A DNA stretch of 4,928 nt, taken from the UHGV virus genome UHGV-2078699, one strand, 5' to 3'. The notes below the pieces were generated by a model that worked only from the letters and a program-made list of their open reading frames with translations, searched no databases and was not told the origin of the DNA. Positions 1 through 4,928 of the stretch are shown here, piece after piece (within the stretch, counting starts at the first letter, position 1; each line of letters starts with the position of its first letter). The DNA is from a virus. The translations under genes and the position numbers were made by a program.

Positions 1-23
1 GGATTCGATTTTCGCAGCGGCCT

Positions 24-56
24 TTTCAACATAACGAGTCGTACATTATGCGCACC
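24..56 (-). other. dif-like XerC/XerD recombination site (putative prophage attachment junction), atypical spacing
   Basis: The minus strand reads GGTGCGCATAA-TGTACGACTCG-TTATGTTGAAA. The first 11 nt are identical to the XerC arm of E. coli dif (GGTGCGCATAATGTATATTATGTTAAAT, recalled from memory). The last 11 nt match the XerD arm TTATGTTAAAT at 9 of 11 positions. The two arms are separated by 11 nt rather than the canonical 6. Confidence 0.4.
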
Positions 57-94: not shown

Positions 95-328
95 TCATTG
101 GTCACAGACCGTAATCCACTGGCCCAGGACGTCTTTCAGGCAATGTTGGCATAAATCCAGTTTTAAGCGATTACTGTCACCAAAAATTGAACCGTATCCA
201 GCTAAGTGATTAACAGACAGAAACTCATTGAACTCAATGTCATCTACCACCGTCTTCGCATGGCGACCACAGCGATCGCAGGTCTTCGCACATAACATTA
301 CAGTATCGCTGGATGTGAAAAATTGCAT
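95..328 (-). CDS. hypothetical small Cys-rich protein, zinc-ribbon-like (77 aa)
   Basis: ORF with ATG at 328..326 preceded by a strong SD (GAGGAGA, 5-nt spacer). The protein has C13-x3-C17-x2-C20 and C61-x2-C64 plus C75, i.e. two CxxC knuckles about 40 residues apart, typical of a zinc ribbon. A loose resemblance to YgiT/MqsA-type zinc-finger domains is from memory only. Confidence 0.5.
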   Translation of the reverse strand: MQFFTSSDTVMLCAKTCDRCGRHAKTVVDDIEFNEFLSVNHLAGYGSIFGDSNRLKLDLCQHCLKDVLGQWITVCDQ

Positions 329-399
329 TTTATCTCCTCGTAATGCTGCCGCGCCGAATCAGCAATAACGCTAAAAAAACAGAATTGTTCGGCTTGGCC

Positions 400-445: not shown

Positions 446-754
446 TCATATAAACCAATAGACCGTCCTTACGCCATTCTGGTTATCAATAACATAGCCG
501 CATTGTTTCCTTAAAAATTCTTCTGCTAAATCAATGGCTTTTACAGAAATCTCATAAGAAGGAAGTAAAGTGTATCCTTTCCCTTCACTGGCAGCTGCTT
601 TGATCGCATCCAGAGTATTATCAATCAGTAACAGAGCAAGTGATGCTTCATTTACCTGAGCCGAAGAACTTCTGGCTGCAAGTGTCATTGTTTTTGCTTC
701 TTCCGCTGTAATCGTTCGTTCTGCCAGAGCAGATAAAATCCCATAAGAATCCAT
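446..754 (-). CDS. hypothetical protein (102 aa), unknown function
   Basis: ORF with ATG at 754..752 and a GGGG-containing SD 7 nt upstream. The protein is Ala/Leu-rich and helical-looking at the N-terminus with a beta-like C-terminus, and has no recognisable signal peptide or TM segment. I recognise no family. Confidence 0.45.
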   Translation of the reverse strand: MDSYGILSALAERTITAEEAKTMTLAARSSSAQVNEASLALLLIDNTLDAIKAAASEGKGYTLLPSYEISVKAIDLAEEFLRKQCGYVIDNQNGVRTVYWFI

Positions 755-774
755 TAGTTACCCCAATCAATAAT

Positions 775-834
775 GTCCATTTGATGGATAGCGAGCAGGG
801 CTTACGCACCTACCCGCTATCCATCAAAGTGGAC
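775..834. promoter_or_regulatory. long hairpin overlapping the gene IV stop codon (candidate terminator / packaging-signal-like element)
   Basis: GTCCATTTGATGGATAGCG (775..793) pairs with CGCTATCCATCAAAGTGGAC (815..834), giving a 19-bp stem with one bulged G and a 21-nt loop. The gene IV stop codon (824..826) lies inside the right arm. In Ff phages the packaging-signal hairpin begins immediately after gene IV. Confidence 0.45.
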
Positions 835-2089
835 GAATGATATGTGCTGTAAGCAAAATATACATAATACGCTGTTCATTGCTGTCTGCCTTGCTACTGA
901 AAATCCAGCCTATAAGAGGAATTTTACTTATAACTGGAACTGAACGCTCGGCATTGCTGAACGATGAATCGATAAGCCCCCCCAATAACAACGTCTGACC
1001 ATCCTTAATCTGGACTGTCGTCTGAATCTGGCGCTGATTAGTAATAATATCGGATGCCTGATCATCATTGCTGATTGAATCAGCGCGAGTGTCGATAGTC
1101 AGAACTAGTTGCCCGTTACCCATGACAACAGGCGTTACCTTGAGAGAAACGCCAACATCATGACGCTCGATAGTCTGAAACGGATTATTTACCCCGGCAG
1201 ATTCGCCCGTTACCTTTCCGGTGATAAACGGCACATTCTTACCTACGGAAATGTAACCAGTCTGACCAGACTGAGTAAGAATACGCGGCGTTGAAATCAC
1301 CTTAGAGCGTGAATTACTCTGGACAGCACGCAGAGACAGCGCCAACACGTTACCATCAAAAATACCAAAAGAACCGCCCGCCGTAGAAAGAGCGCTACCC
1401 AGTGCAGAAGTATTAAAGCCCCCCGCAACCTTATGACCGGATGCAGAACCTGCCGCAAACGATAAATCAACGCCATCAGACAAGCTGGTTTCAAACATCA
1501 GCGACTGAATGAGAACCTGATCGCGGGCAACATCCACAGAATTGATAAAATCGGACAGAACCGGCAGCAGCTCGTCAGGCGCAGAAACAATCAGCGAGTT
1601 ATTGCCTGGATAATCCACGACATTACCACCACCATTAGAATCAAGATAAATTTTAATCAGTTGCTGAACATCGGACGATCTAACTTTTGTCAGCTTAAAA
1701 TTTCTGACCGTAAGCGCCACAGGTACTGGCTGGTAAGATGGCTCAGAAGGAAAAGTATCATAAGACTGGTTATCAGAATCATCGGAATCCGAAACCATCT
1801 GTGAAGGTAATTTAGACGGCAAAGAGACTACCGCAGGATTGCCAGAAAGCATGACAAAACCGTTAGCATTCAGAACAGACTTAAAGAAATCATCAATATT
1901 TGTTGGATTAACATCAGCATTAAATACGGTTACGTTTCCTTTAATATCAGGATTAACAATAACAGGCTTGCCAGTTTTTGAAGAATACCACTGAACAAAT
2001 GAGCGAACAGATGAATTATTTAAATTAACAGTTTCAGCAGAAACGCAGAATGAATAGGCAAATAAAAAAGCAACAATAACAGAGCGCAT
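824..2089 (-). CDS. gIV: filamentous-phage gene IV protein (pIV outer-membrane secretin)
   Basis: The translation aligns along its length with M13/fd pIV as recalled, e.g. VPFITGxVTGESAxVNNPFQTIER, DGQTLLLGGL, IPLIG..FSS and a C-terminal ...RPL. The ATG at 2089..2087 is preceded by AGGAG and gives an N-terminal signal peptide MRSVIVAFLFAYSFCVSA. The 31 codons the ORF track adds upstream (to 2182) overlap the gene I 3' end and are rejected as the start. Confidence 0.92.
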   Translation of the reverse strand: MRSVIVAFLFAYSFCVSAETVNLNNSSVRSFVQWYSSKTGKPVIVNPDIKGNVTVFNADVNPTNIDDFFKSVLNANGFVMLSGNPAVVSLPSKLPSQMVSDSDDSDNQSYDTFPSEPSYQPVPVALTVRNFKLTKVRSSDVQQLIKIYLDSNGGGNVVDYPGNNSLIVSAPDELLPVLSDFINSVDVARDQVLIQSLMFETSLSDGVDLSFAAGSASGHKVAGGFNTSALGSALSTAGGSFGIFDGNVLALSLRAVQSNSRSKVISTPRILTQSGQTGYISVGKNVPFITGKVTGESAGVNNPFQTIERHDVGVSLKVTPVVMGNGQLVLTIDTRADSISNDDQASDIITNQRQIQTTVQIKDGQTLLLGGLIDSSFSNAERSVPVISKIPLIGWIFSSKADSNEQRIMYILLTAHIIRPL

Positions 2090-3191: not shown

Positions 3192-3533
3192 TTAAATCAC
3201 CCTGTTTGCATAATCAAGAAATTTTTGTTTTAAATCGAAAACAAAAACACTGATACGAGTAACCATAATAACGTTAACACACGCCTGAAAATGGTCAGGC
3301 AGTACAGACGCCATTAAATGGGAGAAATCAGCAGGTAAACCGTTGTACATGACCTCAGCAAGGTACTGCATTAAAAGCGTAACAGTTGTTGTAATTAATG
3401 CGACCAATGCAAAGGCGATTAATCCTGTTCTGGTAGCAAGTCGAGCTAAAAAACTCGCCACATAGCCAATAAACAAAGGAACAAGACCAATAAGAAAACG
3501 CAACAATGCAGGAATACCTAATAATAAAGGCAT
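3192..3533 (-). CDS. gVI: filamentous-phage gene VI protein (pVI minor coat protein)
   Basis: 113-aa hydrophobic protein MPLLLGIPALLRFL...FVFDLKQK, matching M13 pVI (MPVLLGIPLLLRFL...IFIFDVKQK, recalled). The ATG at 3533..3531 shares one nucleotide with the gene III stop (TGATG). The ORF track starts one codon earlier at a GTG, which I do not favour. Confidence 0.88.
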   Translation of the reverse strand: MPLLLGIPALLRFLIGLVPLFIGYVASFLARLATRTGLIAFALVALITTTVTLLMQYLAEVMYNGLPADFSHLMASVLPDHFQACVNVIMVTRISVFVFDLKQKFLDYANRVI

Positions 3534-4067
3534 CACTCACCCCCTTTGCGAAGCAATGAAGTTAAAGAAGTAAAGACATACCAGAACGTAAGGCAATAAA
3601 AAACCCATGAAAGAACATCTTTAATAGTCAGTAATTTATCGCAACCAATATCAATCTGATAAACCTCTCCGGGAAAAATAATAAAATCAGAGCAGCCGTT
3701 ACCATTGGGTAAATTAGGCAGCATAGCACCTTTATTTAAAAATGCTTCCCATAAAGCACCGTGAGAATCCTTTTCAATTCCCAATTCAGAATCAGCTAAA
3801 GTAGAAGCGCCATCTAATTCAGAGTCGCCCTTTCCATAACGAGAATCACCACCTGAAGGGTCAGCAAAACGGCCAGCCCCCCGCGTAAGATTGTTAATGG
3901 AATCGTCAAGACGATTTATATTATTCCTGGTTTGTTCATCGGCATTTTTTTTATCATCTGATGAAGTGTCTTTCTCCGTTAATTTATCATGAATATCGCT
4001 GGCTATTTTGGGTGAAGCACCTTCGATCGCAGACTGAATATCACCTTTAGAAAGACTGGAACCACTA
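3533..4067 (-). pseudogene. gIII: gene III (pIII) C-terminal fragment, interrupted by IS630 insertion
   Basis: The C-terminal roughly 175 codons resemble the pIII linker and C-terminal domain (NGNG, IDIGCDK vs M13 SIDCDK, hydrophobic anchor YVFTSL, terminal LLRKGGE vs ILRNKES). Upstream of about 4068 the frame continues into antisense IS630 sequence and the N1/N2 receptor-binding domains are absent. The 5' boundary is approximate, about 5 nt either way. Confidence 0.8.
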
Positions 4068-4928
4068 AATAGCTGCGCGGAATAGTAGATCACTGAAAGG
4101 GAACTCAGCCCGGATTGTGCGATCTGATCAATCGCCAAACCAACCAAAATCACCAACCGGACTGAGCGATGCCGATCATAGTACCAATACCCCGTGGCGA
4201 ACGACGCCTGATGCAGAAAGCTATTCATAAAACGCGTGATAAAAATCATGCCCGCAGACTCACGGCCATGCTGATGCTTCATCGGGGTGAACGGGTCAGC
4301 GATGTTGCCAGAACTCTCTGTTGTGCCCGTTCATCCGTTGGTCGCTGGATTAACTGGTTTACGCACTCAGGTATTGAAGGCCTGAAATCCTTACCCGCAG
4401 GGCGCTCCCGACGCTGGCCTTTTGAACATATCTGCACCCTGTTACGTGAGCTGATAAAGCATTCTCCCGGCGATTTTGGTTATCAACGTTCACGCTGGAG
4501 CACCGAATTACTGGCAATAAAAATCAATGAGATAACCGGTTGCCAGTTACATGCAGGAACCGTTCGCCGCTGGTTGCCATCTGCGGGGCTTGTATGGCGC
4601 AGGGCCGCGCCAACTCTGCGTATCCGTGACCCACATAAAGATGAAAAGATGGCGGTAATCCACAAAGCGCTGGATGAATGCAGCGCAGAGCATCCGGTAT
4701 TTTATGAAGATGAAGTGGATATCCACCTTAATCCTAAAATCGGTGCGGACTGGCAGTTGCGCGGACAGCAGAAACGGGTAGTGACGCCGGGGCAGAACGA
4801 AAAATACTATCTGGCCGGCGCACTGCACAGTGGCACGGGTAAAGTCAGCTACGTGGGCGGCAACAGCAAAAGTTCAGCGCTGTTTATCGCTCTGCTGAAG
4901 CACCTGAAAGCCACTTACCGGCGGGCGA
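4068..4928 (+). mobile_element. IS630-family insertion sequence, left end and most of transposase (partial; continues beyond window)
   Basis: The sequence encodes a transposase matching IS630 as I recall it. GC content rises sharply relative to the AT-rich phage genes (sampled 60-nt lines are about 33% GC in gene IV and about 70% in the transposase). The left boundary is placed after a CTA at 4065..4067, consistent with IS630 inserting at CTAG with TA duplication. The exact inverted-repeat end is not verified. Confidence 0.8.
4169..4928 (+). CDS. IS630-family transposase (Tc1/mariner-like DDE), 3' truncated by the window edge
   Basis: Plus-strand frame open from the ATG at 4169 to the end of the window (253 codons): MPIIVPIPRGERRLMQKAIHKTRDKNHARRLTAMLMLHRGERVSDVARTLCCARSSVGRWINWF (N-terminal HTH) ... 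DPHKDEKMAVIHKALDECSAEHPVFYEDEVDIHLNPKIGADWQLRGQQKRVVTPGQNEKYYLAGALHSGTGKVSYVGG. It is missing from the supplied ORF track, presumably because no stop codon falls inside the window. Confidence 0.9.
   Translation, partial: MPIIVPIPRGERRLMQKAIHKTRDKNHARRLTAMLMLHRGERVSDVARTLCCARSSVGRWINWFTHSGIEGLKSLPAGRSRRWPFEHICTLLRELIKHSPGDFGYQRSRWSTELLAIKINEITGCQLHAGTVRRWLPSAGLVWRRAAPTLRIRDPHKDEKMAVIHKALDECSAEHPVFYEDEVDIHLNPKIGADWQLRGQQKRVVTPGQNEKYYLAGALHSGTGKVSYVGGNSKSSALFIALLKHLKATYRRA

Follow-up and report, generated by a model that had tools for sequence, protein, structure and literature searches.

The 4,928-nucleotide (nt) stretch of DNA analysed here (the window) comes from the virus genome UHGV-2078699 and is part of an Escherichia coli CUS-1/YpfPhi-type filamentous (inovirus) prophage, the last gene of which encodes a protein of 77 amino acids (aa). 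Judged from its homologues, this protein is the stand-alone form of a previously undescribed Cys4 domain of about 60 residues. The genomic logic of the family is modular, as the domain occurs free on phages and plasmids and, in bacteria, fused to antitoxin modules ahead of effector genes. It is tentatively proposed, as a possibility that stops short of the probable, that the phage protein is a free copy of an input module and modulates toxin-antitoxin (TA)-type or defence modules or their trigger. The gene is not new as such, being annotated and discussed in the YpfPhi/CUS-1 literature as an open reading frame (ORF) of unknown function. No description was found in the literature of the large, sharply conserved Cys4 domain family that it defines, of the repeated use of the domain as the N-terminal part of antitoxin-like proteins whose genes pair with those for nucleases, GNAT acetyltransferases or defence candidates, or of the free form as an accessory gene that inoviruses, small plasmids and tailed phages commonly carry.

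The 77-aa gene

The gene and its main elements lie on the window as follows.

95–328, minus strand: coding sequence of the 77-aa Cys4 zinc-finger protein, ATG start, WP_001159442.1
278–280, 269–271, 149–151 and 140–142, minus strand: codons of the putative zinc ligands C17, C20, C60 and C63, respectively
176–199, minus strand: near-invariant hairpin loop G44-Y-G-S47-I-F49-G50-D51 between the predicted strands E36–43 and E53–60, a candidate ligand-binding surface
333–339, minus strand: Shine-Dalgarno sequence GAGGAGA, read from the sequence, 4 nt (TAAA) before the ATG

This ORF is a genuine gene under purifying selection. Its ratio of nonsynonymous to synonymous substitutions (dN/dS) is 0.106, at a dS of about 0.96, against the 79%-identical orthologue from Phytobacter (locus L018); the identical protein is present on at least 1,000 contigs, and its UniRef entry covers 20 Enterobacterales taxa, while RefSeq labels it 'hypothetical protein'. 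The ORF is intact in every copy examined, which includes two copies each in loci L001 and L002, one in L098 and those of eight IMG/VR contigs, and the frameshifted or truncated database variants (P0004, P0007, P0009, P0010 and P0012) are rare, with 1–3 member sequences each. The original prediction, made from the letters of the window, had placed a 77-aa protein at 95–328 without stating a strand and had made its case depend on the ORF being kept in closely related prophages, and on both points it agrees with what was found. By direct counting the cysteines are residues 13, 17, 20, 60, 63 and 75, which upholds the pair C17-x2-C20 and the additional cysteines at 13 and 75 given in that prediction, and corrects its second pair from C61-x2-C64 to C60-x2-C63. 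The Shine-Dalgarno sequence is likewise as predicted, with a counted spacing of 4 nt in place of 5 nt.

The Cys4 domain family

A direct homology search with the 77-aa protein returned 14 proteins, and a profile built from the intact homologues returned 1,657 proteins at E<=1. When 1.84 billion cluster representatives were searched exhaustively with a hidden Markov model (HMM), 1,506 clusters passed E<=1e-3 and 899 of them E<=1e-10; the resulting family size of about 1,500 clusters is counted at 50% identity. In an HMM alignment of 400 unique members covering both halves, C17, C20, C60 and C63 are all kept in 398, and in the two exceptions (P0008 and P0248) C17 alone is missing. Conservation of the cysteines among homologues, which had been named as a test of the signature, thus holds for these four and fails for C13 and C75, which are lineage-specific and at both of which serine is the commonest residue in the same alignment. 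Near-invariant residues in the 400 members are D18 (96%), E35 (95%), G44 (98%), S47 (99%), F49 (98%), G50 (98%), D51 (100%), D58 (96%) and Q61 (93%), and E32 joins D18, E35 and D58 among the conserved acidic residues. The family signature can be written as C-D-R-C ... E-F-x-E-F ... G-Y-G-S-x-F-G-D-G ... D-L-C-Q-H-C. The family is acidic, with a median isoelectric point of 5.25 and 91% of the members below pH 7; the value for the phage protein is 5.36.

An AlphaFold2 model of the 77-aa protein, built on a 93-sequence alignment, is small, beta-rich and confident, with a mean predicted local distance difference test score of 84.6. In this model C17 and C20 lie between the short strands E14–16 and E23–25 in a beta-hairpin knuckle, C60 and C63 lie at the junction of strand E53–60 with the short helix H61–68, and the GYGSxFGD segment is the loop of a long beta-hairpin. 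The predicted arrangement of the cysteines is compatible with one structural zinc ion, and in our own reading of the model the ligand layout appears to resemble a treble-clef finger more closely than the two hairpins of a classical zinc ribbon. This agrees with the original prediction as regards a small mobile-element protein of the Cys4 zinc-finger type, and tentatively points away from its zinc-ribbon label. The 77-aa protein ends 14 residues past C63 and consists of the zinc-finger domain only. Two members, P0130 (228 aa) and P0197 (186 aa), each have the domain twice, in tandem.

Residues 1–77 match phrog_5435, a PHROG of unknown function, at E=4.5e-46. Against Pfam, NCBIfam and PADLOC the 77-aa protein gave sub-threshold noise (zf-FPG_IleRS at E=0.004, ribosomal S14 and Cas8b), and the search of Protein Data Bank (PDB) sequences with the family profile returned nothing meaningful (best E=0.39). 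Similarities to treble-clef fingers, PARP-type fingers and the ribosomal proteins eS26 and eS21 score below the level of homology, and we know of no counterpart of the GYGSxFGD loop in these fingers. The Cys4 and GYGSxFGD signature marks a family for which neither Pfam nor NCBIfam gives a match above threshold and no structural relative has been solved, and membership of it makes the former 'hypothetical protein' open to experimental test.

The original prediction had proposed profile searches against the YgiT/MqsA-type, TraR/DksA and Ogr/Delta families, and the 77-aa protein belongs to none of them. Membership in one of these, whether as an MqsA/YgiT N-terminal domain, a TraR/DksA-type protein binding RNA polymerase or an Ogr/Delta-type activator, has in its favour the generic likeness of a small mobile-element protein with two CxxC pairs, and is effectively refuted at the sequence and fold level. 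For MqsA/YgiT there is no match in Pfam or NCBIfam at E<=1, the hhalign probability is 0.7% and no fold match was obtained; the zf-dskA_traR signature of TraR/DksA is absent from the 77-aa protein, and Ogr_Delta gives no Pfam match at E<=1. MqsA (YgiT) is comparable in that this type II antitoxin also begins with a Cys4 zinc domain, and in at least one family member, where the domain is joined to a HigA-like 'antidote' domain, an MqsA-like layout would arise. Unlike MqsA, the phage protein has no C-terminal helix-turn-helix (HTH)-Xre domain and no adjacent gene for an MqsR-type toxin, and its cysteine pairs are 39 residues apart, a distance which we take to be about 30 residues in MqsA.

Antitoxin-like fusions

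The 329 sampled members divide into 147 short forms (no more than 15 residues after the domain), 47 intermediate forms and 135 long forms (with a long C-terminal extension), proportions which are those of the best-scoring hits. In the long forms the domain is at the N-terminus. A Pfam scan of 83 long members identified the Xre/MbcA/ParS C-terminal toxin-binding domain (PF09722) in 13, DUF4926 in two, TacA1 in one and the 'antidote' domain dnstrm_HI1420 in one; the sole other match is a single generic zinc ribbon, and most of the 83 have no match. Apart from this zinc ribbon, the Pfam-recognised C-terminal domains of the long forms are toxin-neutralising antitoxin modules. The scores exceed the cutoffs for P0074 on PF09722 (33.5 bits, cutoff 24.5) and P0114 on DUF4926 (39.3 bits, cutoff 29.1), while the 102-aa Salmonella/Klebsiella variant P0020 matches the CcdB-binding C-terminus of CcdA at a sub-threshold E=0.008.

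The long members thus bear the C-terminal modules of PF09722-type antitoxins (Xre-RES, ParS and MbcA) and TacA, with the CcdA-like tail remaining sub-threshold. The 77-aa protein differs from them in having none of the PF09722, TacA or CcdA modules, and corresponds to the novel N-terminal module alone, which in the fusions replaces, or is added to, the HTH or ribbon-helix-helix (RHH) domain. By our own reading of the sequences, an addition is seen in P0261, which already holds RHH-TacA, and in a Polaromonas group (L058–L067) with an HTH and a PF09722-like end; because a full DNA-binding antitoxin is already there, the zinc finger is an additional N-terminal module in these proteins. As to the features of a type II antitoxin, the 77-aa protein shows homology to a domain of antitoxin-like proteins (the PF09722, TacA1 and dnstrm_HI1420 relatives), while neutralising segments are confined to its longer relatives and no toxin gene adjoins it, as a dif-like junction lies downstream and a 102-aa ORF without a toxin signature lies upstream. 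The 'antitoxin-like' idea of the original prediction therefore gains support by a route that it had not foreseen, namely through the N-terminal fusion of the domain to toxin-binding modules elsewhere, and does not extend to a neutralising segment in the phage protein itself.

Genes downstream of the family were surveyed in 80 genome loci, mostly from Burkholderiales and also from Chloroflexota, Desulfobacterota and Bacteroidota. Some long forms have an effector-like gene close behind them. In nine loci of the Roseateles/Pelomonas type this gene encodes a staphylococcal-nuclease (SNase) homologue, mostly at a distance of 2 or −4 nt. Other such genes encode a GNAT acetyltransferase (L062), a nucleotidyltransferase (NTP_transf_2, L053) and an Mrr-like nuclease (Mrr_cat, L011), and on Klebsiella plasmids the downstream product is a DUF2971 protein with similarity to PDC-S31, a defence candidate of PADLOC (E=1.8e-36). 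A tyrosine recombinase gene (XerC/D-like) comes next in L073 and L083, where the two genes overlap by 4 nt.

Many long forms with different C-terminal modules also carry, after the zinc finger, the linear motif F-D-x(2,4)-H-G-G-E-F-P (for example P0075, P0080, P0081, P0104 and P0114, and loci L021–L037).

Stand-alone forms on mobile elements

Short forms follow the secretin gene in four inovirus lineages, that of CUS-1 included. The gene stands directly after the secretin gene in the Klebsiella (L003–L006 and L023) and Phytobacter (L018) inoviruses, while an unrelated 128-aa ORF intervenes in those of Providencia (L180–L182), and the secretins of these other lineages are 24–28% identical to that of the window. 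The gene accordingly has the position of an inovirus accessory gene, lying outside the replication, structural and assembly modules and in the same place after pIV in related phages. Its slot after the assembly and secretion genes is that of ctxAB in CTXPhi. Accessory genes at the ends of inovirus genomes also include the PfiAT and KKP modules of Pf phages, which are TA and kinase-phosphatase modules controlling phage production and defence. All of these are different proteins, whereas the 77-aa gene is a single small gene recurring in four inovirus lineages and beyond.

Beyond inoviruses, the gene is found on small Rep3 plasmids of Proteus and Providencia. Two 7-kb plasmids share a Rep3 backbone (L099 2927–6269 against L007 4604–6534 and 1–1464) and differ in cargo; the shared part starts 13 nt upstream of the start codon of the zinc-finger gene, and about 1.8 kb of mostly non-coding DNA follows before rep. 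In IMG/VR, 80 viral contigs encode a relative, nearly always of 74–106 aa, and many of these contigs are 20–460 kb long and clearly not inoviruses, with the gene placed among small, often overlapping genes. No conserved partner was found in the tailed-phage contigs, where the neighbours are genes for terminase, DNA methyltransferases, HNH endonucleases and nucleotide metabolism.

The cargo of one Rep3 plasmid comprises a SIR2_2 gene and a ParE toxin-antitoxin pair. The three Providencia inoviruses (L180, L181 and L182) have a common structural module, the 128-aa ORF, the zinc-finger gene and a DUF2158 gene, while their replication modules are of different types, one inovirus having Rep_trans and another Phage_GPA. 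The zinc-finger–DUF2158 pair of L182 is at the opposite end of the prophage, which fits a circular permutation via a different integration junction.

Proposed function of the domain

In the explanation favoured here, the four cysteines would hold a structural zinc ion and the GYGSxFGD loop would be the working surface. Because this loop and the conserved acidic residues are invariant while the fused modules, downstream genes, promoters and hosts differ, the ligand of the domain would be common to all hosts, and may be a conserved protein or a generic nucleic-acid structure. A particular operator sequence is probably not the ligand, nor is a particular toxin, as the partners vary. In the antitoxin fusions the domain would act as an input or regulatory module, and the phage protein, in which any neutralising segment is missing, would be the same module in free form. 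This accessory, non-morphogenetic gene product may bind the same ligand and tune or blunt TA- or abortive-infection-type modules, or their trigger, to the benefit of the element. If the domain is indeed an input module with counter-defence copies, it would be a widespread new player in phage-host conflict, and a conserved gene of the prophages of the plague bacillus and E. coli K1 would be given a role.

Several points weigh against this explanation. Zinc binding, the ligand and an effect on TA or defence modules rest on inference; the genes downstream of the examined PF09722 fusions do not encode canonical RES, ParT or MbcT toxins; and the sampling of best-scoring hits biases the proportions of short and long forms. 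The P0074-type, CcdA-tail and DUF4926 fusions, moreover, have no other candidate DNA-binding domain, and the overlap with the recombinase gene (L073 and L083) would suit DNA binding of an Xis-like kind.

Since many fusions have no other candidate DNA-binding domain, a role in DNA binding is a serious alternative and the main rival, although it is considered rather less probable than not and doubtful as it stands. The domain would then be a zinc-dependent DNA-binding and dimerisation module standing in for the HTH or RHH of antitoxins, and the phage protein a regulator or Xis-like factor acting on phage or host DNA, in keeping with which the weak fold matches include nucleic-acid-binding fingers. 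The acidic character of the family, however, and the near-invariant residues, which are acidic, aromatic or glycine, argue against it, as do the fusions which already hold a complete RHH or HTH. A k-mer enrichment analysis of low power found no common operator motif among 130 non-redundant regions upstream of family genes, where inverted repeats are present in 21%, against 14% of controls, which is no clear enrichment. An unvarying recognition surface would also be difficult to square with diverse operators.

The favoured explanation, in which the phage protein is a free input module, can be extended to a more specific one, which is regarded as unlikely. Here the domain would be the sensor, or input module, in a broad, unrecognised set of TA-type immune modules with SNase, GNAT, PDC-S31/DUF2971 and Mrr-like effectors, and the free copies of 74–106 aa would be anti-defence decoys or sponges. 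Carried by inoviruses, small plasmids and many tailed phages, these copies would compete for the ligand that activates the modules, perhaps a conserved protein, a small molecule or some nucleic-acid structure, and would keep the modules silent during establishment. Under such a scheme the YpfPhi/CUS-1 ORF would be a counter-defence gene.

The prophage and its dif-like junction

On the minus strand, the window contains in order the C-terminal part of pIII, pVI (DUF5455), pI/Zot, the pIV secretin, the 102-aa ORF and the 77-aa ORF. Two further features are relevant to this arrangement.

22–56, minus strand: imperfect dif-like junction of tandem copies, composed of the XerC arm GGTGCGCATAA, a spacer of about 11 nt and the diverged XerD-like arm TTATGTTGAAA, about 40 nt past the stop of the 77-aa gene
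824–2089, minus strand: pIV secretin, 421 aa according to RefSeq

Complete E. coli genomes carry the element in tandem copies next to hipBA, and the 77-aa gene is the last gene of the prophage, beside attR/dif. A perfect dif site (GGTGCGCATAATGTATATTATGTTAAAT) lies 39 nt past the stop of the outermost 77-aa gene (L001 3359–3386), while no site fitting the dif pattern with up to 3 mismatches is present in the window or in the circular L098, where only the diverged site exists; the junction between prophage copies has been reported to be an imperfect dif (PMC4266046). L098 is a 7,938-bp Salmonella 'plasmid' (NZ_CP140410), which is the same phage genome in circular form. No match, either DNA or protein, was found among the sequenced phages of INPHARED, the phage being known as prophages and from this one 7.9-kb circular 'plasmid' record.

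In YpfPhi/CUS-1 the ORFs YPO2280a and YPO2281 lie next to attR, have 'no predictable functions' and occupy the slot of ctxAB in CTXPhi, and the E. coli K1 phage CUS-1 and the Yersinia pestis phage YpfPhi are 99% identical in nucleotide sequence over a 7.1-kb segment which includes these ORFs (PMC4266046). The 77-aa ORF appears to be the homologue of YPO2281, an assignment made from gene order and the description in the review: the phage type is the same, and in both cases it is the last ORF by attR/dif, after the secretin and one small ORF. In the literature no functional data were found for YPO2281, nor for any zinc-finger antitoxin domain resembling this one.

TLCPhi has a Xer activation factor. 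By analogy, the 77-aa protein might be an accessory factor for XerCD/dif integration or excision, since its gene is the closest to attR/dif and adjoins the imperfect junction in the window, and its relatives overlap the XerC/D-like recombinase gene in L073 and L083. This is held to be very improbable, as the family is abundant in tailed-phage contigs, antitoxin fusions and Rep3 plasmids, of which the Proteus plasmid L099 has no dif-like site within 3 mismatches. The Klebsiella inovirus with the gene is, moreover, not obviously integrated at dif, because its flanks differ between genomes.

Comparison of the copies places the 102-aa and 77-aa genes in the conserved backbone of the phage. The cargo slot beyond the att site and before the replication module varies between near-identical copies, even within one tandem array, and contains a PD-(D/E)XK nuclease and DUF6953 in L001 (10124–11956), an HTH protein and other small ORFs in L002 (10271–11960 and 1679–3373) and a Doc-family toxin in L098 (2138–3207). 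The frameshifted variants P0004 and P0010 read through the tandem-copy junction, where the '...GAHNV' segment is translated GGTGCGCATAATGT.

The 102-aa neighbour and the intergenic hairpins

The region upstream of the 77-aa gene contains the following features.

446–754, minus strand: 102-aa ORF (WP_000378924), homologue of YPO2280a by gene order
400–444: 20-nt inverted repeat (hairpin I1) between the 102-aa and 77-aa ORFs, 90% complementary
780–828: second 20-nt inverted repeat (I2), between the stop codon of the secretin gene and the 102-aa ORF, 90% complementary

The 102-aa protein is confined to CUS-1-type phages, while the 77-aa family occurs without it in 3 other inovirus lineages, in plasmids and in tailed-phage contigs. 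The functional link between the two proteins which the original prediction had raised thus finds no comparative support, as the two do not co-occur outside the CUS-1-type lineage, and on this distribution an obligate partnership of the two ORFs was rejected.

The two genes might nevertheless form an addiction pair resembling MqsRA, with the toxin first and the zinc-finger antitoxin second, which would stabilise the prophage or episome. They are adjacent and on the same strand in every CUS-1-type copy, accessory TA systems are known in inoviruses, and the 77-aa family is linked to antitoxins. Such a pair is nonetheless improbable, given the lineage restriction of the 102-aa protein beside a family that is widespread without it, and the 117 nt with a strong hairpin which separate the ORFs. 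Searches of Pfam, PADLOC and NCBIfam linked the 102-aa protein to no toxin family, and the folds that its model weakly recalls are winged-helix, Smr and Alba, not RelE or MqsR; the 77-aa protein has no recognised toxin-binding segment. The hypotheses of an MqsA-like protein, a TraR-like protein or a partner of the 102-aa protein are all now unlikely.

The stretch 329–450, which includes the first inverted repeat, folds with a minimum free energy of −45.2 kcal/mol (z −5.08). Because no T-run follows them, neither repeat is a canonical terminator; a consensus scan of positions 1–900 found no promoter or terminator, and Rfam gave only sub-threshold miRNA-hairpin artefacts over the repeat at 780–828. 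The repeats could be attenuators, RNA-stability elements or signals of the single-stranded phage DNA (packaging or origin hairpins).

Other features of the window

For the secretin, the ORF list gives 452 aa from position 2182, which would overlap the end of pI, against the 421 aa from 2089 of RefSeq, and the N-terminus of the 421-aa form (MRSVIVAFLF...) resembles a signal peptide. One more gene was identified at the far end of the window.

4068–4928, plus strand: IS630-type transposase interrupting the gene of the pIII attachment protein, with its ORF running from 4211 off the end of the window

The transposase contains the domains HTH_23/HTH_32/HTH_29 and the start of DDE_3. Identity to the intact pIII of L001 ends at about position 4067, and the 249-aa ORF at 3533–4282 is therefore a chimera; the prophage copy in the window is probably non-infective. 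Chimeras of another kind recur among the database sequences, in which an N-terminal fragment of the replication protein pII/G2P runs into either the final 23 residues of the 77-aa protein or the 102-aa protein, as in P0014 (105 aa, 70 member sequences) and in members of the cluster of the 102-aa protein, respectively, which suggests that they reflect common deletion or recombination derivatives such as defective or mini-phage copies.

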